A DNA stretch of 64,000 bases from Escherichia coli (lineage in GTDB: Bacteria; Pseudomonadota; Gammaproteobacteria; Enterobacterales; Enterobacteriaceae): assembly GCF_046105845.1 (NCBI RefSeq), contig NZ_CP151004.1; one strand, 5' to 3'. A model generated the notes under the pieces. That model searched no databases. It had not been told where the DNA came from and saw only the letters and a program-made list of their open reading frames with translations. Below, in pieces: positions 41,273-64,000 of this stretch. The position numbers and the translations under genes are program-made. Position 1 is the first letter of the stretch; the number at the start of each line of letters is the position of its first letter.

Positions 41273-42643
41273 GAGTTCCCCGCGCCAGCGGGGATAAACC
41301 GTTGTCCTGCTGAACCAAGTAAGCCACTGACAAGAGTTCCCCGCGCCAGCGGGGATAAACCGCATTATATCCTGTGCGTCGTTCATTTATTTACGAGTTC
41401 CCCGCGCCAGCGGGGATAAACCGGCCGCCGCATGGCAAAACAAACATCGGGGTACGAGTTCCCCGCGCCAGCGGGGATAAACCGGAACGGCGGCTATACG
41501 GATTCGACAGGTCAGCGAGTTCCCCGCGCCAGCGGGGATAAACCGGATTGAATGCAGATGGTTCAATGCTCGCATTCGAGTTCCCCGCGCCAGCGGGGAT
41601 AAACCGCCACGCGTGCTTTGAGTGGATGGTGTCGCTTGGAGTTCCCCGCGCCAGCGGGGATAAACCGATACATTATTAAGCGGGCAATTTTTCCAGTTTG
41701 AGTTCCCCGCGCCAGCGGGGATAAACCGAACGGCACGGCCTGCCGCCACGTCCCGCAGCTGAGTTCCCCGCGCCAGCGGGGATAAACCGGGGCCGTGTTT
41801 TCTAACGGATTCGCACATTGCGAGTTCCCCGCGCCAGCGGGGATAAACCGCAGCAGTTCAATACTGAAATCAACATGCCGATGAGTTCCCCGCGCCAGCG
41901 GGGATAAACCGCGCGGTGGGGTTTCATTCGCATCAATTCAAGGGAGTTCCCCGCGCCAGCGGGGATAAACCGGCGGTGAGTGAGAAAATCAGGACGGCTG
42001 CGAGGAGTTCCCCGCGCCAGCGGGGATAAACCGCGCCAAATATGCTGGTGGACTTCTACGCCGATGAGTTCCCCGCGCCAGCGGGGATAAACCGCTATCG
42101 ACGGTCAAGAAAATCCACCGGAAGAAGAGTTCCCCGCGCCAGCGGGGATAAACCGGCAGCAATATATTTGACATAATAGATAACCCGGAGTTCCCCGCGC
42201 CAGCGGGGATAAACCGACGCCAGGGGAGATATAACGCGCCTGTTATGGGAGTTCCCCGCGCCAGCGGGGATAAACCGGTCTTAACTAAAAGATGACCATT
42301 CAGTCGCAGGAGTTCCCCGCGCCAGCGGGGATAAACCGCGGCCCATAATATTAATATAATCCACATGAGGGAGTTCCCCGCGCCAGCGGGGATAAACCGC
42401 GCCGGAAATCATCGTTCTGTAATTGTCTAGCGAGTTCCCCGCGCCAGCGGGGATAAACCGCCCTGTTTGTTATTCCCATTATACGTATAAGAGAGTTCCC
42501 CGCGCCAGCGGGGATAAACCGCTTCTGGCTGGAGGTGGAGAAACGGAGGCAATGAGTTCCCCGCGTTAGCGGGGATAAACCGGATTTAGAGAGCCAGACG
42601 TTGGTCAGTTATTCGAGTTCCCCGCGTCAGCGGGGATAACCAT
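41273..42643 (+). CRISPR. Type I-E CRISPR array, 23 repeats / 22 spacers
   Basis: 29-bp repeat GAGTTCCCCGCGCCAGCGGGGATAAACCG recurs at exactly 61-bp period from 41273 to 42615; 32-bp unique spacers; repeat 22 has C>T (GCGTTAGCGGGG); terminal repeat degenerate (GCGTCAGCGGGGATAACCA). Confidence 0.97.
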
Positions 42644-42655
42644 TCAGGTATGTTC

Positions 42656-42681
42656 AGGCCGGGCAGTTTCCCGCCCGGCCT
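42656..42681. terminator. GC hairpin between array end and ygcE stop (possible bidirectional terminator)
   Basis: aggccgggcagtttcccgcccggcct perfect stem-loop; no clear U-tract, so terminator function is uncertain. Confidence 0.4.
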
Positions 42682-42688
42682 TCCTCAC

Positions 42689-44167
42689 TTACGCATTCGA
42701 CCAGCTCTGGATCGAATCTTCATTCCCCAATTCCCCATGCATCACTTCATACGATTTTTTCAGGATCACATCAGTGTGTTTGGTTAGGTCTTTGAAAATG
42801 CCTTTATTCATCGCGTCGTAGCGTTTGGCGTTGCTCTCAACAGGCATAAAGATATCTTTCACGCGAACCATTTTGTCGACAGCCGTTGCGTAATCCGGGT
42901 ATAGCCCCAGACCTACCGCCGTATTAATCGCTGCCCCCAGGCTTGCACAACCATTAATGGCGTTACGGCGTGCCGGAAGGTTGAACACGTCGGCAAAAAT
43001 CTGCATAAACAGATCGCTGTTCGAACCGCCGCCAGTAATGATCACATGCTTTGCAAAGTGATTCATTTCATTACACATATTGTCGTAATTGTTCTTCAGC
43101 GTCAGCGCCACGCTTTCCAGTATCGAACGATATATCCATGCGTAATCCATGCTGGAATCAAAGCCGATCATAATCCCGCGTTTGTACGGTTCCCACGGAT
43201 TGGTCAGCCAGTCCAGCACCGTCATCAGACCATTACAGCCAGGCGGCACACAAGACGCTTTTTTGTTGAGCAAATCTTCCGGTGAAAGATCCTGTGCTTT
43301 GGCATCCTGAATTAACGACTCGCCTAACATGTCGCGTAGCCAGCTCACCGTCCACATGCCTTTGCGGATACCGTAACCTTCATACAGCAAGGTTTGTGGA
43401 ATAGAAGACATAATCGGCCAGTACGCTACCGGATCTTTCGGCAGTGCTTTGCCGTTCATCATCAACGCGATGTAAGTGCCAAGAGAAATTACCGCAGTTT
43501 CATCATCCAGTAACCCGGCTCCCAGTGCTTCTACCGGTTTATCACTGGTGGTACAAACAACCGGCAGCCCAGCCGGGAAATGTGTAGCCAGCGCGGCTTG
43601 AGGAGTGATATGCCCAAGAACAGTGCCCGGCATTTGCACATCAAACAGCATATGACGGGGGATATTAAACTTCTCCATGACTGCGGCATCTTCACTCCAT
43701 GCCCAGGTCTTATAATCCACCGGCCACTGACCAAAATAGTTGGCGATATTGTCTTTAAACTCGCCGGTTAAGCGATGCGTCAGATAACCTGAAAAAGAGG
43801 TGACATATGCCACGTCAGGATTCGTATGTTCGTAAGGGCGTGTAACGCGTGCATCCTGCCAGCTAATCAACGGCGCAGCTGGCGTGCCATCGGCTTTCAA
43901 TAACGCACGGCAGCAACGGATGGATCCCAGACCAATACCGACAATATCTTCTTTATTTCCGGCAAACTGACTCATCAAATCGTGACCGGCAAAACATAAT
44001 GATGCCCATAAATCGTCGTCAGGATGTTCTGCGGTATCGGCATCTGGCGTGTGCATCGGCTGTAATAAGCCTTTGCCTTCGCAAACCACGTTACCTTCCA
44101 GATCGTACATCACCACTTTTGTGCTCTGACTTCCGCCATCAATCCCTATGATGTATTTTTTCGACAT
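42689..44167 (-). CDS. ygcE: FGGY-family carbohydrate kinase YgcE (substrate unknown)
   Basis: 492 aa MSKKYIIGIDGGSQSTKVVMYD; FGGY N- and C-terminal domains. Confidence 0.85.
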   Translation of the reverse strand: MSKKYIIGIDGGSQSTKVVMYDLEGNVVCEGKGLLQPMHTPDADTAEHPDDDLWASLCFAGHDLMSQFAGNKEDIVGIGLGSIRCCRALLKADGTPAAPLISWQDARVTRPYEHTNPDVAYVTSFSGYLTHRLTGEFKDNIANYFGQWPVDYKTWAWSEDAAVMEKFNIPRHMLFDVQMPGTVLGHITPQAALATHFPAGLPVVCTTSDKPVEALGAGLLDDETAVISLGTYIALMMNGKALPKDPVAYWPIMSSIPQTLLYEGYGIRKGMWTVSWLRDMLGESLIQDAKAQDLSPEDLLNKKASCVPPGCNGLMTVLDWLTNPWEPYKRGIMIGFDSSMDYAWIYRSILESVALTLKNNYDNMCNEMNHFAKHVIITGGGSNSDLFMQIFADVFNLPARRNAINGCASLGAAINTAVGLGLYPDYATAVDKMVRVKDIFMPVESNAKRYDAMNKGIFKDLTKHTDVILKKSYEVMHGELGNEDSIQSWSNA

Positions 44168-44193
44168 GATTTTTCTCCTGTAATTTTCTGGAC

Positions 44194-45471
44194 TTACTTG
44201 CTGCTAGCCATAGCAGGGGCGCTATCAGCAGTACGAATTTTTTGGAACAGCAAAAAGGTAAAGACGATCACCATGGCAAGCGCCGCCATGCCCATCAGCC
44301 ACATATTGCGGTAGGCTTCTGCAGCGGGCAGGGTGTCTTGCCAGTAGCCGATAATCGGGTAAACGAAGACATCCGGCAGGAATCCAATCACCGAACAAAT
44401 ACCTACCGTGGTGCCCATAATGTAAGACGGTGTTCTCGCTTCGCCAGGGCAGGCCCAGTACAGCCCGCGTGAGGCGTAACAGGTGAATCCCAGCAGTAAA
44501 ATCAGGCCAATCCCCATCGCGACCGATTGCGGGTTAGAGTTCGTGACGAGCAGGGCAGTTAACGCCAGCAAGCCGAGTACGGAAAGGATTTGGATCACGC
44601 GGGTAGGGGATTTCACTTTGCTGTAGGTGGTGATAATGCCACCAAGTGGGCCGCACAGCGCGCGGAAGATTTTGTTGATCACAATCCCCATGTAGCTCGC
44701 CGCCACCAGCGACATGCCGTACATTTCGGTCAGATAGTTGGTGGAGTAACTCAGAATGGCGTAGATGGTGAAGACACCAAAAATCACCATGCTGCAATAC
44801 CAGGTGGTTCTGATGCGCAAAACGGCCAGGATGTCGCTAAGCTGGAATGAATGTTTTTCTTCGTTATTGGTATTGCGCAGGTTGTTGTTATCGCTGACAA
44901 AAAACCAACACAAAATGCCCAGCAGAATGTAAACCACACTATAGATAATAATGACCGTTTTCAGGCTGGCGCTGTCATCCGGTGCAAAGCGAGAAAAGAC
45001 CCACATGGTAAACACCGCCAGCGACATTACACCGACGCCGCGCAGCCCTTCCATCCAGCCCATAATTTTCCCTTGCTCGCTATGATCGCCCAGCAACGAT
45101 GCGGCTTTAATCGACACCGACCACAGCATTAAAATCGTCGTTATCGCAAAGGCGACCTGAATACAGAGCATTACCCACAGCGGTGGATATGTTGCCATTA
45201 ACAGACCCAGTAATCCGGTAATGATCATCGCGGAAGTAATCATTTTGCGGTGTGAAAATTTATCGGCAATAACGCCGCTGGGGGCATAAAGAATAATAGC
45301 CGCAATACCAAAGGTACTCATTATTAAACCTATCTCGGTATTGCTGAATCCCATAAATTTCGCCATGGGAATTTGATAAATATAACGTAAATAAGCCAGG
45401 TCGAAACTAACGCCGCCGCTAAAACTAATTATCGCGAGGGTTATCCAACGGCGATATGAGTTGTGTTGCAT
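44194..45471 (-). CDS. yqcE: MFS transporter YqcE
   Basis: 425 aa, about 12 TM segments. Confidence 0.85.
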   Translation of the reverse strand: MQHNSYRRWITLAIISFSGGVSFDLAYLRYIYQIPMAKFMGFSNTEIGLIMSTFGIAAIILYAPSGVIADKFSHRKMITSAMIITGLLGLLMATYPPLWVMLCIQVAFAITTILMLWSVSIKAASLLGDHSEQGKIMGWMEGLRGVGVMSLAVFTMWVFSRFAPDDSASLKTVIIIYSVVYILLGILCWFFVSDNNNLRNTNNEEKHSFQLSDILAVLRIRTTWYCSMVIFGVFTIYAILSYSTNYLTEMYGMSLVAASYMGIVINKIFRALCGPLGGIITTYSKVKSPTRVIQILSVLGLLALTALLVTNSNPQSVAMGIGLILLLGFTCYASRGLYWACPGEARTPSYIMGTTVGICSVIGFLPDVFVYPIIGYWQDTLPAAEAYRNMWLMGMAALAMVIVFTFLLFQKIRTADSAPAMASSK

Positions 45472-45789
45472 ATCGTATTCCCATTTGTAATAGACAAAAA
45501 AAAGAGAAAAGTAAGCCGCCCTTTCAGGTGGATTACTTTTCTCAGGTCTCTAGTAATTGCAATAAGAAATAACATGGAAAGCAGTGGTGTTGTGTGAGAG
45601 TAATCACGCTTCTGCTTTTTAAAATTATTTGACAATTCGAATATCACACTGTGATTACGATCACATTAGCGATTATGCCCTTATGATAAAAATTATCTCC
45701 AGTTACCAGAGATAATGAGAAAGGTAACTTCCCTCTCGCGGGGGAAGTTACCTTTCTTTTTTTTTGCCTTACGGAAATTGGAGCTAACT

Positions 45790-46575
45790 ATGTCAATCGA
45801 ATCTCTCAATGCGTTCTCAATGGATTTTTTCTCCCTGAAAGGTAAAACCGCAATTGTTACCGGCGGGAATAGCGGTTTAGGCCAGGCATTTGCCATGGCG
45901 CTGGCCAAAGCAGGCGCAAATATCTTTATTCCAAGCTTCGTTAAAGATAACGGAGAAACAAAGGAAATGATTGAAAAACAGGGTGTTGAGGTGGACTTCA
46001 TGCAGGTGGATATCACCGCAGAAGGCGCGCCGCAGAAGATAATCGCCGCCTGTTGCGAACGTTTCGGTACCGTCGATATTCTGATTAACAATGCCGGTAT
46101 TTGTAAGCTGAATAAGGTGCTGGACTTCGGTCGTGCCGACTGGGACCCGATGATTGATGTGAACCTGACCGCCGCATTCGAGTTAAGCTATGAAGCGGCA
46201 AAAATTATGATCCCGCAGAAAAGCGGTAAAATCATTAATATCTGTTCATTGTTCTCTTACTTAGGTGGACAATGGTCACCTGCTTATTCTGCCACTAAAC
46301 ATGCTCTTGCCGGATTCACCAAAGCCTATTGCGATGAATTAGGTCAATATAATATTCAGGTGAATGGTATTGCTCCGGGATATTACGCTACCGATATCAC
46401 TCTGGCGACCCGTAGTAATCCAGAAACTAACCAGCGCGTTCTTGATCATATTCCGGCAAACCGTTGGGGCGATACTCAGGATTTAATGGGCGCAGCCGTA
46501 TTCCTCGCAAGTCCGGCATCGAATTATGTCAACGGACATTTATTAGTGGTTGATGGCGGTTATTTAGTGCGCTAA
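45790..46575 (+). CDS. ygcW: short-chain dehydrogenase/reductase YgcW (KduD/gluconate 5-dehydrogenase-like)
   Basis: ORF 45715 trimmed to MSIESLNAFS start; SDR cofactor motif TGGNSGLGQA and catalytic YSATK. Confidence 0.8.
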   Translation: MSIESLNAFSMDFFSLKGKTAIVTGGNSGLGQAFAMALAKAGANIFIPSFVKDNGETKEMIEKQGVEVDFMQVDITAEGAPQKIIAACCERFGTVDILINNAGICKLNKVLDFGRADWDPMIDVNLTAAFELSYEAAKIMIPQKSGKIINICSLFSYLGGQWSPAYSATKHALAGFTKAYCDELGQYNIQVNGIAPGYYATDITLATRSNPETNQRVLDHIPANRWGDTQDLMGAAVFLASPASNYVNGHLLVVDGGYLVR

Positions 46576-46644
46576 TCCATAACGGTGGTTTCTGTTTTCT
46601 CTTATTAATGATTATTCCATTTTTATTATCAGGAAGGAATTACT

Positions 46645-48099
46645 ATGTCTTTATCTCGCGCAGCGATTGTCGACCAGCTAAAGGAAATTGTTGGTGCAGA
46701 TCGCGTAATTACCGATGAAACAGTATTAAAGAAAAACAGTATTGACCGTTTTCGTAAATTTCCGGATATTCATGGTATTTATACTTTGCCGATTCCGGCA
46801 GCGGTCGTAAAACTCGGTTCCACAGAACAAGTCTCCCGTGTGCTGAATTTTATGAATGCGCACAAAATTAACGGTGTGCCGCGTACCGGCGCTTCCGCCA
46901 CTGAAGGTGGGCTGGAAACCGTTGTGGAAAACTCGGTGGTGCTCGACGGCTCCGCCATGAATCAAATCATTAATATTGATATTGAGAATATGCAGGCCAC
47001 GGCGCAATGTGGTGTTCCGCTGGAAGTGCTGGAAAACGCGTTGCGTGAAAAAGGTTACACCACGGGGCATTCTCCGCAGTCAAAGCCGCTGGCGCAGATG
47101 GGCGGCCTGGTAGCAACCCGCAGTATCGGGCAGTTCTCCACACTCTACGGCGCAATCGAAGATATGGTCGTTGGTCTGGAAGCGGTACTGGCAGATGGCA
47201 CCGTAACACGCATTAAAAACGTACCACGCCGCGCGGCAGGCCCGGACATTCGCCACATCATCATCGGCAACGAAGGTGCATTGTGCTATATCACTGAAGT
47301 AACAGTGAAAATCTTTAAGTTCACCCCGGAAAACAACCTCTTCTACGGCTATATCCTGGAAGACATGAAAACCGGCTTCAACATCCTGCGTGAAATCATG
47401 GTGGAAGGGTATCGTCCGTCGATCGCTCGTTTGTATGACGCTGAAGATGGCACCCAACACTTCACCCATTTTGCCGATGGTAAATGTGTGCTGATCTTTA
47501 TGGCTGAAGGTAACCCTCGCATTGCGAAGGCGACAGGCGAAGGGATTGCGGAAATCGTGGCACGTTACCCGCAATGCCAGCGAGTGGACAGCAAGCTGAT
47601 CGAAACCTGGTTTAATCACCTGAACTGGGGGCCGGATAAAGTGGCCGCTGAACGTGTGCAGATCCTCAAAACCGGCAACATGGGCTTTACCACCGAAGTG
47701 TCCGGCTGCTGGAGCTGCATCCACGAAATCTACGAAAGCGTTATTAACCGTATTCGTACCGAGTTCCCGCACGCCGACGACATCACCATGCTGGGCGGTC
47801 ACTCCTCTCACAGCTACCAGAACGGCACCAACATGTACTTCGTTTACGACTACAACGTTGTTGACTGTAAGCCGGAAGAGGAAATCGACAAGTACCACAA
47901 TCCGCTCAACAAAATCATCTGCGAAGAAACCATTCGCCTCGGCGGTTCGATGGTGCACCACCACGGTATTGGTAAACATCGCGTTCACTGGAGCAAACTG
48001 GAACACGGCAGCGCGTGGACGTTGCTGGAAGGTCTGAAAAAACAGTTCGATCCTAACGGCATTATGAATACGGGTACTATCTATCCGATTGAAAAATAA
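46645..48099 (+). CDS. ygcU: FAD-linked oxidase YgcU (GlcD / alkyl-DHAP synthase-like)
   Basis: 484 aa; FAD-binding PCMH-type domain. Confidence 0.85.
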   Translation: MSLSRAAIVDQLKEIVGADRVITDETVLKKNSIDRFRKFPDIHGIYTLPIPAAVVKLGSTEQVSRVLNFMNAHKINGVPRTGASATEGGLETVVENSVVLDGSAMNQIINIDIENMQATAQCGVPLEVLENALREKGYTTGHSPQSKPLAQMGGLVATRSIGQFSTLYGAIEDMVVGLEAVLADGTVTRIKNVPRRAAGPDIRHIIIGNEGALCYITEVTVKIFKFTPENNLFYGYILEDMKTGFNILREIMVEGYRPSIARLYDAEDGTQHFTHFADGKCVLIFMAEGNPRIAKATGEGIAEIVARYPQCQRVDSKLIETWFNHLNWGPDKVAAERVQILKTGNMGFTTEVSGCWSCIHEIYESVINRIRTEFPHADDITMLGGHSSHSYQNGTNMYFVYDYNVVDCKPEEEIDKYHNPLNKIICEETIRLGGSMVHHHGIGKHRVHWSKLEHGSAWTLLEGLKKQFDPNGIMNTGTIYPIEK

Positions 48100-48191
48100 T
48101 ATGTCAGGCAGCGTTCCGCTATGAGGGGCGTTGCCTTTTCGGCTTCTCAGGCGAGAAGCCGTTCTTATTACCGGACAATGAAGGGGTAAAG

Positions 48192-49529
48192 ATGAACACT
48201 TCACCGGTGCGAATGGATGATTTACCGCTTAACCGTTTTCACTGTCGAATTGCTGCGCTCACTTTCGGCGCGCACCTGACCGACGGTTATGTTCTCGGCG
48301 TCATTGGTTACGCCATTATTCAGCTTACACCCGCCATGCAACTGACGCCGTTTATGGCGGGAATGATTGGCGGCTCAGCACTCCTTGGTTTGTTTCTTGG
48401 CAGCCTGGTTCTGGGCTGGATCTCCGACCATATTGGGCGACAAAAAATCTTCACCTTCAGCTTTTTGCTGATTACGCTTGCTTCGTTTTTACAATTTTTT
48501 GCCACCACGCCAGAGCATCTTATTGGACTGCGCATTTTGATTGGCATTGGTCTGGGAGGCGATTACTCAGTCGGTCACACCTTGCTGGCTGAATTTTCCC
48601 CGCGCCGCCATCGCGGTGTTTTGCTGGGCGCATTCAGCGTAGTGTGGACGGTGGGCTATGTGCTGGCAAGCATTGCCGGACATCACTTTATTAGCGAAAG
48701 CCCGGAGGCCTGGCGCTGGCTGCTGGCATCGGCAGCTCTGCCCGCATTGTTGATTACGTTATTACGCTGGGGAACGCCAGAATCGCCACGCTGGCTACTG
48801 CGCCAGGGGCGTTTTGCAGAAGCTCACGCTATCGTGCATCGCTATTTTGGTCCCCATGTTTTACTGGGCGATGAAGTGGCAACGGCGACCCATAAACACA
48901 TCAAAACCTTGTTCTCTTCGCGCTACTGGCGGCGCACGGCGTTTAACAGCGTCTTCTTTGTCTGCCTCGTAATCCCATGGTTTGTGATTTATACCTGGCT
49001 GCCAACTATCGCCCAGACTATTGGTCTGGAAGATGCGTTGACTGCCAGCCTGATGCTTAATGCGTTGTTAATTGTGGGTGCGCTGCTGGGATTAGTTCTG
49101 ACGCACCTGCTGGCACATCGCAAATTTTTGCTGGGAAGTTTTTTGCTGCTGGCGGCAACGCTGGCAGTGATGGCTTGTTTGCCTTCCGGCAGTTCATTAA
49201 CGCTGCTGCTTTTTGTTCTCTTCAGCACCACCATTTCGGCAGTCAGTAATCTGGTGGGCATTTTGCCTGCGGAAAGTTTTCCTACTGACATTCGCTCGCT
49301 GGGCGTCGGTTTTGCCACCGCCATGAGTCGACTTGGCGCGGCGGTAAGTACTGGCCTGCTGCCGTGGGTGCTGGCGCAGTGGGGAATGCAAGTCACCTTA
49401 TTGCTCCTGGCGGCAGTGTTGTTGGTTGGTTTTGTTGTGACCTGGCTATGGGCACCAGAAACCAAAGCACTCTCGCTGGTGGCGGCGGGAAATGTAGGAG
49501 GTGCGAATGAACATTCTGTTAGCGTTTAA
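48192..49529 (+). CDS. ygcS: MFS sugar-type transporter YgcS
   Basis: 445 aa, 12 TM, sugar-porter-like motifs (GRQKIF, PESPRWL). Confidence 0.85.
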   Translation: MNTSPVRMDDLPLNRFHCRIAALTFGAHLTDGYVLGVIGYAIIQLTPAMQLTPFMAGMIGGSALLGLFLGSLVLGWISDHIGRQKIFTFSFLLITLASFLQFFATTPEHLIGLRILIGIGLGGDYSVGHTLLAEFSPRRHRGVLLGAFSVVWTVGYVLASIAGHHFISESPEAWRWLLASAALPALLITLLRWGTPESPRWLLRQGRFAEAHAIVHRYFGPHVLLGDEVATATHKHIKTLFSSRYWRRTAFNSVFFVCLVIPWFVIYTWLPTIAQTIGLEDALTASLMLNALLIVGALLGLVLTHLLAHRKFLLGSFLLLAATLAVMACLPSGSSLTLLLFVLFSTTISAVSNLVGILPAESFPTDIRSLGVGFATAMSRLGAAVSTGLLPWVLAQWGMQVTLLLLAAVLLVGFVVTWLWAPETKALSLVAAGNVGGANEHSVSV

Positions 49530-51143: not shown

Positions 51144-51147
51144 CGTG

Positions 51148-51253: not shown

Positions 51254-51289
51254 CAAAGCACATAAATTCAACTCGTTACGAGTATCCCG

Positions 51290-53404: not shown

Positions 53405-53481
53405 GTCGTGCCCCATATATCCAGAGCGCAACACCCTAACATAGCGTTACTTAAGGGAAATTGACCGCCGACACACTCTTA

Positions 53482-53931: not shown

Positions 53932-54162
53932 AATCGCTGATTTATCTTAATGATTGGCTAAATTCATTTGTTTTTCATTGGGTTGGTTAATCTGTTTTGT
54001 TGTTAAAGACTATTGCTAAAACAGGTTAGTCGATTTGGTTATTAGTTATCGCTATCCCGTCTTTAATCCACACCGTTCACCCCGTTAACCTTACCTTCTC
54101 TTCTGTTTTATGGGCGCTGACAGGGCGCAGAAACAGCTTTGCTTACTGGAACATAACGACGC
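53932..54162 (+). promoter_or_regulatory. cysJIH promoter region (CysB-dependent in E. coli)
   Basis: AT-rich 230 bp upstream of cysJ; specific CysB sites not resolved by eye. Confidence 0.45.
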
Positions 54163-55962
54163 ATGACGACACAGGTCCCACCTTCCGCGTTGCTTCCGTT
54201 GAACCCGGAGCAACTGGCACGCCTTCAGGCGGCCACGACCGATTTAACTCCTACCCAGCTTGCCTGGGTTTCTGGCTATTTCTGGGGCGTGCTCAACCAG
54301 CAGCCTGCTGCGCTTGCAGCGACGCCAGCGCCCGCCGCAGAAATGCCGGATATAACTATTATCTCCGCTTCGCAAACCGGCAATGCGCGCCGGGTTGCTG
54401 AAGCATTACGCGATGATTTATTAGCGGCAAAACTGAACGTTAAGCTGGTGAACGCGGGCGACTATAAATTCAAACAAATCGCCAGCGAAAAACTGCTCAT
54501 CGTGGTGACGTCAACGCAAGGGGAAGGGGAACCGCCGGAAGAAGCCGTCGCGCTGCATAAGTTCCTGTTCTCCAAAAAAGCGCCAAAGCTGGAAAACACT
54601 GCATTTGCCGTGTTTAGCCTCGGCGATAGCTCTTATGAATTTTTCTGCCAGTCCGGGAAAGATTTTGACAGCAAGCTGGCGGAACTGGGCGGTGAACGCC
54701 TGCTCGACCGTGTCGATGCCGACGTTGAATACCAGGCTGCTGCCATCGAGTGGCGCGCCCGCGTGGTTGATGCGCTTAAATCGCGTGCGCCTGTCGCGGC
54801 ACCTTCGCAATCCGTCGCTACTGGCGCGGTAAATGAAATCCACACCAGCCCGTACAGCAAAGACGCGCCGCTGGTGGCGAGCCTCTCTGTTAACCAGAAA
54901 ATTACCGGGCGTAACTCTGAAAAAGACGTTCGCCATATCGAAATTGACTTAGGTGACTCTGGCCTGCGTTACCAGCCGGGTGACGCGCTGGGCGTCTGGT
55001 ATCAGAACGATCCGGCACTGGTGAAAGAACTTGTCGAACTGCTGTGGCTGAAAGGCGATGAAACTGTCACCGTTGACGGCAAAACGCTGACCCTGAGCGA
55101 AGCGCTACAGTGGCACTTTGAACTCACCGTCAACACCGCGAATATTGTTGAGAACTACGCCACGCTTACCCGCAGCGAAACGCTGCTGCCGCTGGTGGGC
55201 GATAAAGCCAAGTTACAGCATTACGCCGTGACCACGCCGATTGTTGACATGGTGCGTTTCTCTCCGGCGCAACTGGATGCCGAAGCGCTGATTAACCTGC
55301 TGCGCCCGCTGACCCCGCGCCTGTATTCCATCGCCTCCTCGCAGGCGGAAGTCGAGAACGAAGTACACGTTACCGTTGGTGTGGTGCGTTACGACGTGGA
55401 AGGCCGCGCCCGTGCCGGTGGTGCCTCCAGTTTCCTCGCGGACCGTGTGGAAGAAGAGGGCGAAGTCCGCGTCTTTATCGAACATAACGATAACTTCCGC
55501 CTGCCAGCCAATCCGGAAACGTCGGTGATTATGATTGGCCCAGGCACCGGCATCGCGCCGTTCCGCGCCTTTATGCAGCAACGCGCCGCCGACGAAGCGT
55601 CGGGGAAAAACTGGCTGTTCTTTGGCAACCCGCACTTTACGGAAGATTTCCTCTACCAGGTGGAATGGCAGCGCTACGTCAAAGAGGGCGTGCTGACGCG
55701 TATCGATCTTGCCTGGTCGCGCGATCAAAAAGAAAAAATTTACGTACAAGACAAACTGCGCGAACAGGGCGCGGAGCTGTGGCGCTGGATCAATGACGGT
55801 GCCCACATTTATGTCTGCGGCGACGCTAATCGCATGGCGAAAGACGTTGAGCAGGCACTTCTGGAAGTGATTGCCGAATTTGGTGGCATGGACACCGAAG
55901 CGGCGGATGAATTTTTAAGTGAGCTGCGCGTAGAGCGCCGTTATCAGCGAGATGTCTACTAA
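54163..55962 (+). CDS. cysJ: sulfite reductase [NADPH] flavoprotein alpha-component CysJ
   Basis: 599 aa; flavodoxin-like FMN domain plus FAD/NADPH ferredoxin-reductase domain. Confidence 0.95.
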
Positions 55963-57674
55963 TGAGCGAAAAACATCCAGGGCCTTTAGTGGTCGAAGGA
56001 AAACTGACAGACGCCGAGCGCATGAAGCTTGAAAGCAACTACCTGCGCGGCACCATTGCGGAAGATTTAAACGACGGTCTGACCGGTGGTTTTAAGGGCG
56101 ACAACTTCCTGCTGATCCGCTTCCACGGCATGTATCAGCAGGATGACCGCGACATCCGCGCCGAACGTGCTGAACAGAAGCTGGAGCCACGTCATGCAAT
56201 GCTGTTGCGCTGTCGTCTGCCGGGTGGGGTGATTACCACCAAACAGTGGCAGGCGATCGATAAATTTGCCGGTGAAAACACCATCTATGGCAGCATTCGC
56301 CTGACCAACCGCCAGACGTTTCAGTTTCACGGCATTCTGAAAAAGAACGTCAAACCGGTGCACCAGATGCTGCACTCGGTCGGTCTTGATGCGCTGGCGA
56401 CCGCCAACGATATGAACCGTAACGTGCTGTGCACTTCGAACCCTTACGAGTCGCAGTTGCACGCGGAAGCATATGAATGGGCGAAGAAAATCTCTGAACA
56501 TCTGCTGCCACGTACCCGCGCGTATGCGGAGATCTGGCTCGATCAGGAAAAAGTCGCCACTACTGATGAAGAGCCGATCCTTGGTCAGACCTACCTGCCG
56601 CGTAAGTTCAAAACCACGGTAGTGATCCCGCCGCAGAACGATATCGATCTGCACGCCAACGACATGAACTTCGTGGCGATCGCCGAAAACGGCAAGCTGG
56701 TGGGCTTTAACCTGCTGGTGGGCGGTGGGCTTTCCATCGAGCACGGCAACAAGAAGACCTACGCCCGCACGGCGAGTGAGTTTGGTTATCTGCCGCTGGA
56801 GCATACGCTAGCGGTGGCGGAAGCCGTCGTGACAACTCAGCGTGACTGGGGTAACCGAACCGATCGTAAAAATGCCAAAACCAAATACACGCTGGAGCGC
56901 GTGGGGGTTGAGACGTTTAAAGCGGAAGTGGAGCGTCGCGCGGGGATCAAATTTGAACCGATCCGTCCGTATGAGTTTACCGGACGCGGCGATCGTATTG
57001 GCTGGGTTAAGGGCATTGATGATAACTGGCACCTGACGCTGTTTATCGAAAATGGTCGCATCCTTGATTATCCTGGGCGTCCGCTGAAAACCGGCCTGCT
57101 GGAGATCGCGAAGATCCACAAAGGCGATTTCCGCATTACGGCGAACCAGAATCTAATCATCGCCGGTGTGCCGGAAAGCGAGAAAGCGAAGATCGAGAAG
57201 ATCGCCAAAGAGAGCGGGTTAATGAATGCCGTCACGCCGCAGCGTGAAAACTCAATGGCCTGCGTGTCATTCCCGACTTGCCCGCTGGCGATGGCGGAAG
57301 CAGAGCGTTTCCTGCCGTCTTTTATCGACAACATCGATAATTTAATGGCGAAACATGGTGTCAGCGATGAGCATATCGTGATGCGTGTAACAGGCTGCCC
57401 GAACGGTTGTGGTCGCGCGATGCTGGCGGAAGTGGGCCTGGTGGGTAAAGCGCCGGGTCGCTACAACCTGCATCTTGGCGGCAACCGCATTGGGACACGT
57501 ATCCCACGGATGTATAAAGAAAACATCACCGAGCCGGAAATCCTGGCGTCGCTTGATGAACTGATAGGGCGCTGGGCGAAAGAGCGCGAAGCGGGTGAAG
57601 GCTTCGGCGACTTTACGGTGCGTGCGGGCATCATTCGCCCGGTGCTCGATCCGGCGCGGGATTTGTGGGATTAA
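55962..57674 (+). CDS. cysI: sulfite reductase [NADPH] hemoprotein beta-component CysI
   Basis: 570 aa; siroheme/4Fe-4S cysteines ([19 protein letters not shown]); ATG overlaps cysJ stop. Confidence 0.95.
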
Positions 57675-57690
57675 CCATCAGCCCGGTCTT

Positions 57691-57730
57691 GTAGGCCTGA
57701 TAAGACGTGTGAGCGTCGCATCAGGCAAGG
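57691..57730. repeat. REP element between cysI and cysH
   Basis: gtaggcctgataagacgtgtgagcgtcgcatcaggcaagg. Confidence 0.55.
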
Positions 57731-57747
57731 CAAACAGTGAGGAATCT

Positions 57748-58482
57748 ATGTCCAAACTCGATCTAAACGCCCTGAACGAACTGCCGAAGGTAGATCGCAT
57801 TCTGGCGCTGGCGGAAACTAACGCCGAACTGGAAAAACTGGACGCTGAAAGCCGCGTTGCCTGGGCGCTGGATAATCTGCCCGGTGAATATGTACTTTCT
57901 TCCAGCTTTGGCATTCAGGCGGCGGTGAGCCTGCATCTGGTGAATCAGATTCACCCGGATATCCCGGTGATCCTGACCGATACGGGTTATCTGTTTCCGG
58001 AAACCTACCGCTTTATTGACGAGTTAACGGACAAACTCAAGCTCAACCTGAAAGTGTACCGTGCTACCGAAAGCGCCGCCTGGCAGGAAGCGCGCTACGG
58101 CAAACTGTGGGAGCAGGGTGTTGAAGGCATTGAAAAGTACAATGACATCAACAAAGTCGAACCAATGAACCGGGCGCTGAAAGAACTGAATGCGCAAACC
58201 TGGTTTGCTGGCCTGCGCCGTGAACAATCCGGCAGCCGCGCCAATTTACCGGTGCTGGCAATTCAGCGTGGCGTATTTAAAGTGCTGCCGATTATCGACT
58301 GGGATAACCGAACTATTTATCAGTACCTGCAAAAGCATGGCCTGAAATATCACCCATTATGGGACGAAGGATATTTATCGGTGGGCGATACCCATACAAC
58401 CCGTAAATGGGAACCCGGCATGGCGGAAGAAGAAACGCGTTTCTTTGGCTTAAAAAGGGAATGTGGGTTACACGAAGGGTAA
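57748..58482 (+). CDS. cysH: phosphoadenosine phosphosulfate (PAPS) reductase CysH
   Basis: ORF 57595 trimmed to [23 protein letters not shown] (244 aa); C-terminal ECGLH catalytic Cys motif. Confidence 0.9.
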
Positions 58483-58840
58483 ATATTGCCGGATAAATTA
58501 AACGCCTCTGTCAGAAATGATGGGGGCGTTTTTATTTTGCGAGCAGCATTCCTGATTTTAAACGTGAACGCCGCTGGAAGAATCAACAGGTATATAATGG
58601 TGTCGGGTGCTTGAGGCTGTCTGGCGTTAAGCATTCGCGAGGTTCCAGATGGACAAAAGCCCCAGGCGATATTTCTATCAACCTGAGGCCAGCGTTCGAA
58701 CCCAAACAATTCGAATGTTAGTCTCTTCTTTGCAGGGAGGCAAGACATGTGTATATCACTGTAATTCGATATTTATGAGCAGCATCGAAAAATAGTCCAC
58801 TGATATCATCGATAATACTAAAAAAACAGGGAGGCTATTA

Positions 58841-61507
58841 ATGGAACCTTTTAAATATATATGTCATTACTGGGGGAAATCCTCAAAAAGCCTGACGAAA
58901 GGAAATGATATTCATCTGTTGATTTATCATTGCCTGGATGTTGCAGCTGTTGCAGATTGCTGGTGGGATCAATCAGTCGTACTACAAAATGCTTTTTGCC
59001 GAAATGAAATGCTATCAAAACAGAAGGTGAAAGCCTGGCTGTTATTTTTCATTGCCCTTCATGATATCGGAAAGTTTGATATACGATTCCAATATAAATC
59101 AGCAGAAAGTTGGCTGAAATTAAATCCTGCAACGCCATCACTTAATGGTCCATCAACACAAATGTGCCGTAAATTTAATCATGGTGCAGCCGGTCTGTAT
59201 TGGTTTAACCAGGATTCACTTTCAGAGCAATCTCCCGGGGATTTTTTCAGTTTTTTTGATGCCGCTCCTCATCCTTATGAGTCCTGGTTTCCATGGGTAG
59301 AGGCCGTTACAGGACATCATGGTTTTATATTACATTCCCAGGATCAAGATAAGTCGCGTTGGGAAATGCCAGCTTCTCTGGCATCTTATGCTGCGCAAGA
59401 TAAACAGGCTCGTGAGGAGTGGATATCTGTACTCGAAGCATTATTTTTAACGCCAGCTGGGTTATCTATAAACGATATACCACCTGATTGTTCATCACTG
59501 TTAGCAGGTTTTTGCTCGCTTGCTGACTGGTTAGGTTCCTGGACCACAACGGATACCTTTCTATTCAAAGAAGATGCACCTTCAGGCATACAAGCGCTAA
59601 GAACATATTTTCAGTATAGACAACAGGATGCGTGTCGGGTACTGGAGTTGAGTGGCCTTGTATCAAATAAGCGTAGTTATGACGGCGTACATGCCTTACT
59701 GGACAATGGCTATCAACCAAGACAATTACAGGTGTTGGTTGATGCTCTTCCTACAGCTCCCGGGCTGACGGTGATTGAGGCACCTACGGGATCAGGTAAA
59801 ACCGAAACAGCGCTGGCCTATGCCTGGAAACTTATTGACCAACAACTTGCGGAGAGTGTTATTTTTGCCCTCCCTACACAAGCTACTGCAAATGCAATGC
59901 TCAGTAGAATGGAAGCGAACGCGAGCCGTTTATTTACCTCCCCAAATCTTATTCTTGCTCATGGTAATTCACGTTTTAACCACCTTTTTCAATCAATAAA
60001 ATCACGCGCATTTACTGAGCAGGGGCAAGAAGAAGCATGGGTTCAGTGTTGCCAATGGTTGTCACAAAGTAATAAGAAAGTGTTTCTAGGGCAAATAGGC
60101 GTTTGCACGATTGATCAGGTATTGATATCGGTATTGCCAGTTAAACATCGCTTTATCCGTGGTTTGGGAATTGGTCGAAGTATTTTAATTGTTGATGAAG
60201 TTCATGCTTACGACACGTATATGAACGGCTTGCTGGAGGCTGTGCTCAAGGCTCAGGCTGATGTGGGAGGGAGTGTTATTCTTCTTTCCGCAACTCTACC
60301 AATGAAACAAAAACAGAAACTTCTGGATACTTATGGTCTGCATACAGATCCAGAGGAAAATAACTCCGCATATCCACTCATTAACTGGCGAGGTGTGAAT
60401 GGTGCACAACGTTTTGATCTGTTAGCTCATCCAGAACAACTCCCGCCCCGCTTTTCGATTCGGCCAGAACCTATTTATTTAGCTGACATGTTACCTGACC
60501 TTAGGATGTTAGAGCGAATGATCGCAGCGGCAAATGCGGGTGCACAAGTCTGTCTTATCTGCAATTTGGTTGATGTTGCACAACTATGCCACCAACGGTT
60601 AAAGGAACTAAATAACACGCAAGTAGATATAGATTTGTTTCATGCGCGCTTTACGCTGAACGATCGTCGTGAAAAAGAGAATCGAGTTATTAGCAATTTC
60701 GGCAAAAATGGGAAGCGAAATGTTGGACGGATACTTGTCGCCACCCAGGTCGTGGAACAATCACTCGACGTTGATTTTGATTGGTTAATTACTCAGCATT
60801 GCCCCGCAGATTTACTTTTCCAACGATTGGGCCGTTTACATCGCCATCATCGCAAATATCGTCCCGCTGGTTTTGAGGTTCCTCTTGCCACCGTTTTGCT
60901 GCCTGATGGCGAAGGTTACGGACGACATGAGCATATTTATAGCAACGTTAGAGTCATGTGGCGGACGCAGCAACATATTGAGGAACTTAATGGAGCATCC
61001 TTATTTTTCCCCGATGCCTACCGGCAATGGCTGGATAGCATTTACGATGATGCTGAAATGGATGAGCCAGAATGGGTCATCAAAGGCATGGATAAGTTTG
61101 AAAGCGCTGAGTGTGAAAAGAGGTTCAAGGCTCGCAAGGTTCTGCAGTGGGCTGAAGAATATAGCTTGCAGGATAACGATGAAACAATTCTTGCGGTAAC
61201 GAGGGATGGGGAAATGAGCCTGCCATTATTGCCTTATTTACAAACGTCTTCAGGTAAACAACTGCTCGATGGCCAGGTCTACGAGGACCTAAGTCATGAA
61301 CAGCAGTATGAGGCGTTAGCACTTAATCGCGTCAATGTACCCTTCACCTGGAAACGTAATTTTTCTGAAGTAGTAGATGAAGATGGGTTACTTTGGCTGG
61401 AAGGGAAACAGAATCAGAATGGATGGATCTGGCAGGGTAATAATATTGTTATTACCTACACTCGGGATGAAGGGATGACCAGAGTCATCCCTGCAAATCC
61501 CAAATAA
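58841..61507 (+). CDS. cas3: CRISPR-associated nuclease/helicase Cas3 (type I-E)
   Basis: 888 aa; HD nuclease motif (FIALHDIGKFD), SF2 helicase Walker A (EAPTGSGKTETAL) and DEAH-type box (LIVDEVHAYD). Confidence 0.95.
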   Translation: MEPFKYICHYWGKSSKSLTKGNDIHLLIYHCLDVAAVADCWWDQSVVLQNAFCRNEMLSKQKVKAWLLFFIALHDIGKFDIRFQYKSAESWLKLNPATPSLNGPSTQMCRKFNHGAAGLYWFNQDSLSEQSPGDFFSFFDAAPHPYESWFPWVEAVTGHHGFILHSQDQDKSRWEMPASLASYAAQDKQAREEWISVLEALFLTPAGLSINDIPPDCSSLLAGFCSLADWLGSWTTTDTFLFKEDAPSGIQALRTYFQYRQQDACRVLELSGLVSNKRSYDGVHALLDNGYQPRQLQVLVDALPTAPGLTVIEAPTGSGKTETALAYAWKLIDQQLAESVIFALPTQATANAMLSRMEANASRLFTSPNLILAHGNSRFNHLFQSIKSRAFTEQGQEEAWVQCCQWLSQSNKKVFLGQIGVCTIDQVLISVLPVKHRFIRGLGIGRSILIVDEVHAYDTYMNGLLEAVLKAQADVGGSVILLSATLPMKQKQKLLDTYGLHTDPEENNSAYPLINWRGVNGAQRFDLLAHPEQLPPRFSIRPEPIYLADMLPDLRMLERMIAAANAGAQVCLICNLVDVAQLCHQRLKELNNTQVDIDLFHARFTLNDRREKENRVISNFGKNGKRNVGRILVATQVVEQSLDVDFDWLITQHCPADLLFQRLGRLHRHHRKYRPAGFEVPLATVLLPDGEGYGRHEHIYSNVRVMWRTQQHIEELNGASLFFPDAYRQWLDSIYDDAEMDEPEWVIKGMDKFESAECEKRFKARKVLQWAEEYSLQDNDETILAVTRDGEMSLPLLPYLQTSSGKQLLDGQVYEDLSHEQQYEALALNRVNVPFTWKRNFSEVVDEDGLLWLEGKQNQNGWIWQGNNIVITYTRDEGMTRVIPANPK

Positions 61508-61921
61508 CTTCGGGAATGATTGGTATCAATGACGATAACAAGACCAATAACGGTTTATCCCTACTTAAGTAGGGAAGGTGCACAATGTACATCTTCTTTT
61601 AATTTCCCGGTATGAGATTTTATATTCACAGTATGAATATTTTATGTAATAAAATTCATGGTGATTATTATAACTAAAAATTTCTTTGATAATAAAACGA
61701 ATAACTTGCAGATTTGAAATGCATGCATTATTGTCTTTAAACAATTCAACACATCTTAATATATGCATAGGTTAATTGTATTAAACCAATGGATATATTT
61801 TTGCAGTGAATGTGATTATTGAATTAATTACGCCGTATTTTTTCTTTGTTTTTACCGATAACGGAAGTGTGCCGACGTATAGAAATGCAGGAGAAATGTC
61901 GGAGCATATGAAGGAGAACAA
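61508..61921 (+). promoter_or_regulatory. cas3-cse1 intergenic region containing the Cascade operon promoter (Pcas)
   Basis: 414 bp, strongly AT-rich, non-coding, directly upstream of cse1; in E. coli K-12 this region is H-NS-silenced and LeuO-activated (established knowledge; exact promoter elements not mapped here). Confidence 0.6.
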
Positions 61922-63430
61922 ATGAATTTGCTTATTGATAACTGGATCCCTGTACGCCCGCGAAACGGGGGGAAAGTCCAAATCATAAATCTGCAATCGC
62001 TATACTGCAGTAGAGATCAGTGGCGATTAAGTTTGCCCCGTGACGATATGGAACTGGCCGCTTTAGCACTGCTGGTTTGCATTGGGCAAATTATCGCCCC
62101 GGCAAAAGATGACGTTGAATTTCGACATCGCATAATGAATCCGCTCACTGAAGATGAGTTTCAACAACTCATCGCGCCGTGGATAGATATGTTCTACCTT
62201 AATCACGCAGAACATCCCTTTATGCAGACCAAAGGTGTCAAAGCAAATGATGTGACTCCAATGGAAAAACTGTTGGCTGGGGTAAGCGGCGCGACGAATT
62301 GTGCATTTGTCAATCAACCGGGGCAGGGTGAAGCATTATGTGGTGGATGCACTGCGATTGCGTTATTCAACCAGGCGAATCAGGCACCTGGTTTTGGTGG
62401 TGGCTTTAAAAGCGGTTTACGTGGAGGAACACCTATAACCACCTTCGTATGTGGGATCGATCTTCGCTCGACGGTGTTACTCAATGTCCTCACAATACCT
62501 CGTCTTCAAAAACAATTTCCCAATGAATCAAATACGGAAAACCAACCTACCTGGATTAAGCCTGTCAAGCCCAATGAATCTGTGCCAGCTTCGTCAATTG
62601 GGTTTGTCCGTGGCTTATTCTGGCAACCAGCGCATATTGAATTATGCGATCCCATTGGGATTGGTAAATGTTCTTGCTGTGGACAGGAAAGCAATTTGCG
62701 TTATACAGGTTTTCTTAAGGAAAAATTTACCTTTACAGTTAATGGGCTATGGCCCCATCCGCATTCCCCTTGTCTGGTAACAGTCAAGAAAGGGGAGGTT
62801 GAGGAAAAATTTCTTGCTTTCACCACCTCCGCACCATCATGGACACAAATCAGCCGAGTTGTGGTAGATAAGATTATTCAAAATGAAAATGGAAATCGCG
62901 TGGCGGCGGTTGTGAATCAATTCAGAAATATTGCGCCGCAAAGTCCTCTTGAATTGATTATGGGGGGATATCGTAATAATCAAGCATCTATTCTTGAACG
63001 GCGTCATGATGTGTTGATGTTTAATCAGGGGTGGCAACAATACGGCAATGTGATAAACGAAATAGTGACTGTTGGTTTGGGATATAAAACAGCCTTACGC
63101 AAGGCGTTATATACCTTTGCAGAAGGGTTTAAAAATAAAGACTTCAAAGGGGCCGGAGTCTCTGTTCATGAGACTGCAGAAAGGCATTTCTATCGACAGA
63201 GTGAATTATTAATTCCCGATGTACTGGCGAATATTAATTTTTCCCAAGCTGATGAGGTAATAGCTGATCTACGAGACAAACTTCATCAATTGTGTGAAAT
63301 GCTATTTAATCAATCTGTAGCTCCCTATGCACATCATCCTAAATTAATAAGCACATTAGCGCTTGCCCGCGCCACGCTATACAAACATTTACGGGAGTTA
63401 AAACCGCAAGGAGGGTCATCAAATGGCTGA
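61922..63430 (+). CDS. casA: Cascade large subunit Cse1 (CasA, Cas8e)
   Basis: 502 aa MNLLIDNWIPVRPRNGGKVQIINLQSLYCSRDQWRLSLPRDD, recognised as E. coli Cse1. Confidence 0.95.
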   Translation: MNLLIDNWIPVRPRNGGKVQIINLQSLYCSRDQWRLSLPRDDMELAALALLVCIGQIIAPAKDDVEFRHRIMNPLTEDEFQQLIAPWIDMFYLNHAEHPFMQTKGVKANDVTPMEKLLAGVSGATNCAFVNQPGQGEALCGGCTAIALFNQANQAPGFGGGFKSGLRGGTPITTFVCGIDLRSTVLLNVLTIPRLQKQFPNESNTENQPTWIKPVKPNESVPASSIGFVRGLFWQPAHIELCDPIGIGKCSCCGQESNLRYTGFLKEKFTFTVNGLWPHPHSPCLVTVKKGEVEEKFLAFTTSAPSWTQISRVVVDKIIQNENGNRVAAVVNQFRNIAPQSPLELIMGGYRNNQASILERRHDVLMFNQGWQQYGNVINEIVTVGLGYKTALRKALYTFAEGFKNKDFKGAGVSVHETAERHFYRQSELLIPDVLANINFSQADEVIADLRDKLHQLCEMLFNQSVAPYAHHPKLISTLALARATLYKHLRELKPQGGSSNG

Positions 63431-63905
63431 TGAAATTGATGCAATAGCTTTATATCGAGCCTGGCAACAACTGGATAATGGAGCATGTGCGCAAATTAGA
63501 CGTGTTTCAGAACCTGATGAATTACGCGATATCCCTGCGTTTTATAGGCTGGTGCAACCTTTTGGTTGGGAAAACCCACGTCACCAGCAGGCTCTTTTGC
63601 GCATGGTGTTTTGCCTGAGCGCAGGAAAGAATGTCATCCGACATCAGGACAAAAAACCGGAGCAAATAACAGGTATCTCGTTGGGAAGAGCTTTAGCCAA
63701 TAGTGGAAGAATTAACGAGCGCCGTATCTTTCAATTAATTCGGGCTGACAGAACAGCCGATATGGTCCAGTTACGTCGATTACTTACTCACGCCGAACCC
63801 GTACTTGACTGGCCATTAATGGCCAGGATGTTGACCTGGTGGGGAAAGCGCGAACGCCAGCAACTTCTGGAAGATTTTGTATTGACCACAAACAAAAATG
63901 CGTAA
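63423..63905 (+). CDS. casB: Cascade small subunit Cse2 (CasB, Cas11)
   Basis: 160 aa MADEIDAIALYRAWQQLDNGACAQIRR; 8-bp overlap with casA. Confidence 0.9.
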   Translation: MADEIDAIALYRAWQQLDNGACAQIRRVSEPDELRDIPAFYRLVQPFGWENPRHQQALLRMVFCLSAGKNVIRHQDKKPEQITGISLGRALANSGRINERRIFQLIRADRTADMVQLRRLLTHAEPVLDWPLMARMLTWWGKRERQQLLEDFVLTTNKNA

Positions 63906-63917
63906 GGAAACCTTTCT

Positions 63918-64000
63918 ATGTCTAACTTTATCAATATTCATGTTCTGATCTCTCACAGCCCTTCATGTCTGAACCGCGACGATATGAACATGCAGAAAGA
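63918..64000 (+). CDS. casC: Cascade backbone subunit Cas7e (CasC, Cse4), N-terminal fragment cut by window end
   Basis: [27 protein letters not shown] opens at 63918 with RBS aggaaa upstream; continues beyond the window. Confidence 0.8.

Follow-up and report, generated by a model that had tools for sequence, protein, structure and literature searches.

Does a CRISPR array that stands far from the nearest cas gene belong to a working CRISPR-Cas system, or is it an orphan? This question is raised by a stretch of 64,000 nucleotides of Escherichia coli DNA (contig NZ_CP151004.1; hereafter the window), in which an array at 41273..42643 precedes cas3 at 58841. The original prediction assigned it to the distal array of E. 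coli, and considered that a flank lacking casE, cas1 or cas2 would make it an orphan of a decayed system. We found that the array is the known second CRISPR array of the E. coli type I-E system, so that the observation is correct but ordinary and already known. It is very probably a functional component, recently in use, of a complete type I-E system and no orphan; going by its anatomy and by published K-12 work, it would be transcribed, processed and used for interference in this strain. A cas-adjacent array accompanied by a distal array between queE and ygcE has been on record since 2010 or earlier, and there is nothing unusual in this layout. The importance beyond correct annotation is small, and the useful outcome is a clean negative on the orphan reading.

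Organisation of the array and its locus

The array consists of 23 copies of a 29-nt repeat, GAGTTCCCCGCGCCAGCGGGGATAAACCG, and 22 spacers (w1–w22), as determined by a repeat search and a separate parse. All spacers are exactly 32 nt long and the 61-nt period is invariant and unbroken from 41273 to 42643, a regularity far beyond chance. The repeat agrees with GWGTTCCCCGCGCCAGCGGGGATAAACCG, the published consensus (PMC3338789), and folds into a 7-bp hairpin (-15.1 kcal/mol, z = -3.6). Hairpin repeats of 29 nt, the substrate of Cas6e, together with 32-nt spacers and the 61-nt period, are as in type I-E. The final two repeats are variants that keep the hairpin, one at 42554 containing GCGTTAGC and the other at 42615 ending in GCGTCAGCGGGGATAACCAT. 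The latter is the terminal degenerate repeat (42615..42643, + strand), whose sequence, GAGTTCCCCGCGTCAGCGGGGATAACCAT, looks like a hybrid between the 5' end of the normal repeat and the K-12 CRISPR2.2 terminal repeat. Since the leader is on the left and the degenerate repeats are on the right, and considering the PAM side of the protospacers, the array is oriented on the + strand, with transcription from left to right. Rfam at gathering thresholds gave no match on the array and no CRISPR repeat family. Periods of 122 and 183 in Tandem Repeats Finder hinted at similar spacers or duplicated blocks, which we rejected as chance, as the best pair in a pairwise spacer comparison had 16/32 matches against a mean maximum of 16.3 after shuffling.

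The left boundary of the locus, upstream of the leader, is queE (ygcF; 40262..40933, + strand), a 223-aa ORF annotated as queE in matching E. coli genomes and in K-12. Flanked by queE, next to leader 2.3, on one side and by ygcE on the other, the array thus occupies the location of CRISPR-II in annotated genomes and in K-12, and its identification as the ygcE-queE array of E. coli was borne out. It is a single array of the CRISPR2.2-3 form, with no counterpart of the 503-nt segment that separates the two arrays of K-12. Between the array and cas3 we found 14 CRISPR-unrelated genes (42689..58482), namely ygcE, yqcE, ygcW, ygcU, ygcS, ygcR, ygcQ, ygcP, ygcO, ygcN, queD, cysJ, cysI and cysH. Their names follow from a DNA identity of 98% with annotated E. 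coli genomes and from synteny with the K-12 gene table; the ORFs have K-12 lengths and K-12 order. The names had been given correctly before, but not their number, which was put at 13 although the list itself adds up to 14. The distance from the array end to the cas3 start is 16,197 nt, in agreement with the earlier figure of about 16 kb. The best identity of the window to complete RefSeq E. coli genomes is only 98–98.9%, a value that led us to consider Shigella or a cryptic clade; draft assemblies that are identical or nearly identical to the window are present among public assemblies.

Leader and promoter

The AT-rich leader of the distal array, leader 2.3, spans 339 nt (40934..41272, + strand). 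It is identical to the K-12 leader 2.3 at 316/339 positions (93%), including all of the final 61 nt. Spacer integration needs at least 60 bp of a leader of this type and does not need transcription (PMC3384332); the BL21-AI array used in that work was equated with CRISPR2.3 by another study (PMC3737337). The -10 box of the pre-crRNA promoter was placed at -61..-66 (PMC3384332), which corresponds to 41207..41212 in the window. We read the segment TG-A-TACTGT at 41204..41212 (+ strand) as a candidate extended -10 element, which is probably part of the pre-crRNA promoter. The hexamer is TACTGT in the window and TACTAT in K-12 and BL21, owing to A>G at 41211 (-62). Because the G allele occurs in 12/17 fetched loci, TACTGT is a common natural variant. 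While a simple sigma-70 consensus scan of the leader returned no + strand promoter, it fails on the experimentally mapped type of K-12 promoter as well; its null result carries no information, given the weak match of the mapped -10 box to the consensus.

cas genes within and beyond the window

The window contains an intact cas3 (58841..61507, + strand) encoding an HD nuclease and superfamily-2 helicase of 888 aa. The protein scored 1601 bits against the cut-off of 569 of the Cas3 equivalog NF007248 (NCBIfam), was also above cut-off for the cas3_HD and cas3_core domain models, and is 95.7% identical to K-12 Cas3 at equal length and with no stops. Both signature genes of type I-E follow with scores above cut-off: casA (cse1; 61922..63430, + strand; 502 aa; NF007247, 904 bits; 98.2% identical to K-12) and casB (cse2; 63423..63905, + strand; 160 aa; TIGR02548, 57 bits against a cut-off of 28.5; 97.5% identical to K-12). 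The cas3–casA intergenic region (61508..61921, + strand) is identical to that of K-12 at 407/414 positions. In K-12 it is the site of the casA operon promoter, Pcas, which is silenced by H-NS (PMC10011333, PMC3338789), and going by this literature the region in the window would be an H-NS-silenced Pcas site as well. The first 83 nt of casC (cas7e; 63918..64000, + strand) precede the window end, and their 27-aa translation is identical to the casC start in the proxy contig described below. Hence, cas7 through cas2 do lie past the window end for the most part, as had been proposed, except for this beginning of casC.

As the window ends at 64000, the downstream cas genes were read in a proxy contig, DBAMWG010000003.1 (GCA_044249515.1). 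The two contigs of this assembly that cover the locus (L002, the proxy itself, and L017) are 100% identical to the window flanks on both sides of the array, over 12,079, 12,177 and 7,996 nt or 32,252 positions. The proxy encodes casC (363 aa), casD (224 aa), casE (199 aa), cas1 (305 aa) and cas2 (94 aa), followed by the cas-proximal array (24 repeats, 23 spacers) and iap; the predicted second array was found there downstream of cas2, and the genes whose loss would have marked an orphan are present in the proxy. As read in the proxy, cas7e, cas5e, cas6e, cas1e and cas2e are all above the NCBIfam cut-offs and of K-12 lengths, the window's own genome showing 27 codons of cas7e. Taking window and proxy together, each of the eight Cas proteins scores above its NCBIfam equivalog cut-off for type I-E, has the length found in K-12, is free of stops and shows 94.7–99.6% identity to its K-12 counterpart. 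The same CasA allele is found in eight listed contigs, and the rest of the operon is kept in 8/8 as far as the contigs extend, one of them ending inside cas2. The array of GCA_044249515.1 has 11 spacers and is without w4–w14 of the window, through either a real deletion or a collapse of short reads, and the proxy is for this reason either a different genome or mis-assembled.

Spacer targets and spacer turnover

Three spacers (w10, w16 and w17) match conjugative plasmids at 32/32 positions, the targets being a 221-kb E. coli plasmid, IncN plasmids of about 35 kb and R27. AAG precedes the protospacer in 3/3 of these perfect matches, the match of w20 (2 mismatches) is preceded by ATG, and that of w8 to F-type traI (1 mismatch) by GAG. 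The AAG/AWG PAM is thus on the 5', leader-proximal side of the spacer, and the K-12 cas variant uses AAG as its PAM (PMC3737337). No target was identified for 17/22 spacers, and a search of the spacers against 50,697 phage records gave no match at E <= 1. We found no other site in the window that matches a spacer with <= 6 mismatches and would indicate self-targeting, and the listed chromosomal matches in E. coli genomes are all within annotated CRISPR arrays. In none of the 5,426 complete RefSeq E. coli genomes does the spacer set occur, the overlap being limited to single spacers (w4, w18); draft assemblies and MAGs (L017, L018, L021) do contain it. Mostly directed at conjugative plasmids (R27, IncN, F-type traI) where targets were identified, the spacers may be modestly useful for plasmid epidemiology and come from an under-sampled E. 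coli lineage.

Relatives with almost SNP-free flanks differ in their spacers. In L021, x23–x25 stand in the place of w1–w2 of the window, and w17–w22 are common to both. Such differences at the leader end between near-identical strains argue for recent Cas1–Cas2 activity. Four related assemblies (L018, L019, L020 and L025) have <= 2 SNPs relative to the window in the leader-side flank compared. On the ygcE side, the number rises to 38–50 SNPs within the first 1.5 kb. In L019, L020 and L025, only w3, or w2 and w3, are common with the window, in mid-array, and are followed by unrelated older spacers. We consider it possible, though somewhat short of an even chance, that the distal array sits on a recombination breakpoint and is a mosaic. 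If the breakpoint is inside the array, blocks of spacers would have been swapped between E. coli lineages by homologous recombination. According to published work, only vertical descent and deletion shape E. coli arrays (PMC4524480), a conclusion that a breakpoint in the array would contradict.

Proposed working of the array and alternative explanations

Based on the anatomy of the locus and published K-12 work, the array, equipped with its own leader, very probably acts in trans with the cas genes 16 kb away. A + strand pre-crRNA would be transcribed from the leader promoter (-10 at 41207..41212), and Cas6e from the cas locus would bind each 7-bp repeat hairpin in this RNA and cut at the 3' base of the hairpin. 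The cuts would yield 61-nt crRNAs composed of an 8-nt AUAAACCG handle, a 32-nt spacer and a 21-nt hairpin. Loaded into Cascade (CasA, CasB, CasC, CasD and CasE), these crRNAs would find AAG-flanked protospacers and lead to the recruitment of Cas3. Cas1–Cas2 with IHF would insert new spacers at the junction of the leader and repeat 1, here as at the cas-proximal array. The system is probably silenced by H-NS under laboratory conditions, by analogy with K-12, where the equivalent system stays silent as long as H-NS represses it (PMC3338789, PMC10011333). The distal array of K-12 has been experimentally shown to acquire spacers and to direct interference: in Δhns, spacers were acquired at both loci and those of either locus interfered equally (PMC3338789). 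The original prediction made expression and use of the array dependent on the unseen genes, cas6e in particular; this stands for cas6e, but the leader promoter of the array itself and the control of Pcas by H-NS and LeuO have to be added.

Two other explanations were weighed. The operon past casB could be truncated, disrupted by an IS or deleted, leaving the array as a fossil that is neither processed nor extended. In favor of this, the window stops 83 nt into casC, several of the best-matching E. coli genomes (H1–H5) carry IS1 or IS3 insertions in cas3 or casA, and the proxy is not literally the same sequence, since its array differs. However, the window itself has intact copies of cas3, casA and casB, the proxy agrees with it at 32,252/32,252 compared flank positions, the downstream genes are intact in all eight contigs with the same CasA allele as far as they extend, and the leader-end differences described above argue for recent activity of Cas1–Cas2. 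With cas3, casA and casB intact in the window and the remaining operon genes intact in the assembly with identical flanks, the idea of an orphan is unsupported and we regard it as extremely unlikely.

Alternatively, the cas genes are complete and spacers are added, but the array is poorly transcribed owing to A>G in the -10 box and its spacers add little to interference, so that it would serve as memory only. The change lowers the match to TATAAT from 4/6 to 3/6, integration requires the 60-bp leader but not transcription (PMC3384332), and the consensus scan was silent in the leader. Against this, the loci with the G allele belong to several lineages, all have GAGTT first repeats and include arrays of 20–27 spacers; the allele is apparently tolerated. 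Moreover, the most conserved -10 positions (A2 and T6) and the upstream TG are intact, and the silence of the scan weighs little, as explained above. Considering both sides, a memory-only array seems very improbable, and we favor an array that is both extended and used together with the complete cas operon.

Comparison with known systems

Studies of E. coli refer to the array between queE (ygcF) and ygcE as CRISPR-II or CRISPR2.3 (PMC3903273, PMC3338789). In K-12, CRISPR-II (CRISPR2.3 and a CRISPR2.2 remnant, from ygcE to ygcF/queE) has the same chromosomal position and orientation as in the window, and the cas operon, of the same cas-EK type, is 16 kb away beyond the same 14 genes. The array is 46 nt from ygcE in both, where the terminal repeats, ATGTTCCCCGCGTCAGCGGGGATAACCAT in K-12 and the degenerate repeat in the window, have the same 3' half. 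In K-12, 6 spacers are followed by a 503-nt gap and a 2-repeat remnant; the 22 spacers of the window form a single uninterrupted array, and no spacer is common to the two. The repeats are GTGTT ('A-type') in K-12 and GAGTT ('T-type') in the window, and the leader has A at -62 in K-12 and G in the window. A single-array CRISPR2.2-3 form of the CRISPR-II locus was reportedly described by Díez-Villaseñor in 2010. In this form, found in some E. coli strains, one array fills the queE–ygcE interval without the 0.5-kb separation, and the window is structurally no different. Both the two-locus layout and the single CRISPR2.2-3 form have been described (Almendros 2014, PMC3903273). The 'array I' of BL21-AI (Yosef 2012, PMC3384332) is of the same locus type (CRISPR2.3, per PMC3737337) and the same leader family as the window, and is the standard substrate for Cas1–Cas2 acquisition assays, in which it was extended by Cas1–Cas2 in trans (PMC3384332). 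BL21-AI has no cas genes and GTGTT repeats, whereas the lineage of the window has a complete operon.

Organization of the queE–ygcE array

The array at 41273..42643 consists of 23 repeats (GAGTTCCCCGCGCCAGCGGGGATAAACCG) and 22 spacers of exactly 32 nt, with an invariant repeat start-to-start period of 61 nt. It lies between queE (40262..40933) on the left and ygcE (42689..44167, minus strand) on the right, where an array annotated as "CRISPR" is found in thousands of E. coli genomes and where the second array of K-12 is located. The two final repeats are variants, one with a loop change and the terminal one with a degenerate 3' end. The 7-bp repeat hairpin (−15.1 kcal/mol, z = −3.6) is kept in both, so each spacer is flanked by a proper handle upstream and a hairpin downstream. 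Of the 339 nt that separate queE from the first repeat, 316 match the K-12 leader, including all of the last 61. The leader on the queE side and the degenerate repeats on the ygcE side place transcription on the + strand. At −61..−66, where the −10 box has been mapped (PMC3384332), the window reads TACTGT and K-12 reads TACTAT, an A>G change at 41211. The G allele was carried by 12 of the 17 fetched loci, always with GAGTT first repeats and including arrays of 20–27 spacers; TACTGT is therefore a common natural allele. On the other side of queE, the interval to eno (39096..40260) is variable: the window has ygcG alone, its protein 92.6% identical to the common allele, and other E. coli genomes have LemA, two TPM-domain genes and a 382-aa gene.

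The intact cas3 gene (888 aa) starts at 58841, 16,197 nt past the array end, which bears out the predicted distance of about 16 kb. Intervening genes were named using annotated E. coli genomes at about 98% DNA identity and the K-12 gene table. They are, in order, ygcE, yqcE, ygcW, ygcU, ygcS, ygcR, ygcQ, ygcP, ygcO, ygcN, queD, cysJ, cysI and cysH, making 14 rather than the 13 of the original prediction, whose own list also totals 14. Its assignment of the array as the distal ygcE–queE array of E. coli agrees with the shared position in annotated genomes and K-12 and with the K-12-like leader. Both casA (61922..63430) and casB (63423..63905) also fall inside the window, as do the first 83 nt of casC, which starts at 63918. 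Of the genes from cas7 (casC) to cas2, all placed past the window end in the original prediction, the start of casC is inside. Between cysH and cas3, the Rfam model RF01794 ('sok antitoxin') gave a full-length match at 58605..58761 (+) with 103.7 bits; K-12 sokX is annotated at the homologous spot, but on the opposite strand by coordinate conversion. A 132-aa ORF at 58350..58748 (−) overlaps this match, is a called gene in some assemblies, and had no Pfam match.

The cas operon beyond the window end, as seen in an identical-flank assembly

We queried public assemblies with the exact CasA protein and with the rare YgcG allele. Contig DBAMWG010000003.1 (GCA_044249515.1) was 100% identical to the window over 12,177 nt (29096..41272), 7,996 nt (42644..50639) and 12,079 nt (51922..64000). 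Past the window end it carries casC (363 aa), casD (224 aa), casE (199 aa), cas1 (305 aa) and cas2 (94 aa), followed by a leader identical to the K-12 CRISPR-I leader, a 24-repeat array and iap. All eight Cas proteins have K-12 lengths without internal stops, are 94.7–99.6% identical to those of K-12 and score above the NCBIfam type I-E cut-offs. The remaining operon genes were intact, as far as the contigs extend, in all eight contigs listed with the CasA allele of the window. The possibility of an orphan array of a decayed system was checked through casE, cas1 and cas2 on DBAMWG010000003.1; all are present and intact in this identical-flank assembly, and the orphan reading is very unlikely. 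As the queE–ygcE array of GCA_044249515.1 has only 11 spacers (w1–w3 and w15–w22, numbered from the leader end of the window array), this assembly must come from a very close relative or have collapsed there during short-read assembly; it is not literally the genome of the window.

The cas-proximal array of this assembly (15676..17107 in locus L002) lies outside the window. Its four oldest full repeats are of the GTGTT ('A-type') form and all newer ones of the GAGTT form, a sequence pattern suggesting that the first repeat changed during the history of the array. Its spacers match P1/P7 phage-plasmids (parB region, gp23) and many F-like plasmids.

Proposed function and spacer targets

Leader promoters are present at both K-12 loci. 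In K-12 Δhns cells, anti-plasmid spacers were acquired at both, in 67% of clones at 2.1 and 74% at 2.3, and spacers of either locus interfered equally (PMC3338789). The homologous array of BL21-AI was extended by plasmid-supplied Cas1–Cas2, for which 60 bp of leader suffices (PMC3384332, PMC3737337). By analogy with the K-12 work, Cas6e, Cascade, Cas3 and Cas1–Cas2 would act in trans on the distal array, so that its distance from the cas genes would be irrelevant. The cas3–casA intergenic region is identical to K-12 at 407 of 414 positions, and silencing by H-NS and activation by LeuO are probable here as well.

Three spacers matched conjugative plasmids at 32/32 positions, each protospacer being preceded by AAG: w10 (on an E. 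coli plasmid of 221 kb), w16 (on IncN plasmids close to 35 kb in size) and w17 (on R27 and its relatives, 165–254 kb). Spacer w8 matched F-type traI with one mismatch and GAG before the protospacer, and w20 had two mismatches and ATG. No phage targets were found for the window spacers. The K-12 cas variant, paired with GAGTT ("T-type") repeats, acquires spacers at AAG, or CTT on the opposite strand (PMC3737337); the PAM, the repeat type and the Cas variant are thus consistent with one another. Spacers w4 (41485..41516) and w18 (42339..42370) also turn up, one at a time, in the CRISPR arrays of several complete E. coli genomes that are otherwise unrelated, UMNK88, NCTC9080 and M19 among them; these are shared relics or repeated acquisitions of the same protospacer.

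Divergence among relatives

Relatives with nearly SNP-free flanks share trailer-end spacers and differ at the leader end, as with w1–w2 of the window versus x23–x25 of locus L021, which is the signature of recent polarised acquisition and, together with the repeat hairpin and the AAG-flanked plasmid matches, points to an array in use. Four other loci (L018, L019, L020 and L025) differ from the window by at most two SNPs in the compared leader-side flank and by 38–50 SNPs over the 1.5 kb that follow the array towards ygcE, so that SNP density shifts sharply at the array (41273..44200 compared). In L019, L020 and L025, only w3, or w2 and w3, are common with the window, in mid-array, and the older spacers after these are unrelated, an "order divergence event" in the sense of PMC4524480. 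Either recombination at the array or inside it, or a pair of independent deletions from an ancestor with a longer array, could account for this; the second is favoured in part by the K-12-type 0.5-kb segment and the 2.2 remnant, which those relatives retain.

Elsewhere in the window, mazE–mazF lies between relA and mazG (34308..34922) and is absent from the otherwise closely related L019, L020 and L022. The small RNA genes CsrB (21154..21513, +, 382.9 bits) and GcvB (2720..2925, −, 199 bits) are at their expected K-12 positions. Among 5,426 complete RefSeq E. coli genomes, the best match to the window had only 98–98.9% identity, and of the draft assemblies, MAGs and assemblies of read sets that overlap it, several were identical or nearly so; finished genomes seem to sample this lineage poorly.

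Comparison with the CRISPR-II locus of K-12

In K-12, CRISPR-II (the queE–ygcE array locus) comprises seven repeats, a 503-nt gap and a two-repeat remnant 46 nt from ygcE, whereas the window has one unbroken array, likewise ending 46 nt from ygcE, and lacks the 503-nt inter-array segment. The terminal repeat of the window (within 42554..42643) has the 5' end of a normal repeat (GAGTT) joined to the 3' part seen in the K-12 CRISPR2.2 terminal repeat. This hybrid appearance suggests that the single 'CRISPR2.2-3' array arose by repeat-to-repeat deletion. All defining features of type I-E and CRISPR-II that could be tested were found. The spacer set is the only new element: apart from single shared spacers, complete RefSeq genomes lack it. 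The two-locus layout, the action in trans and the single-array form have all been described before, and the finding is correct and ordinary.
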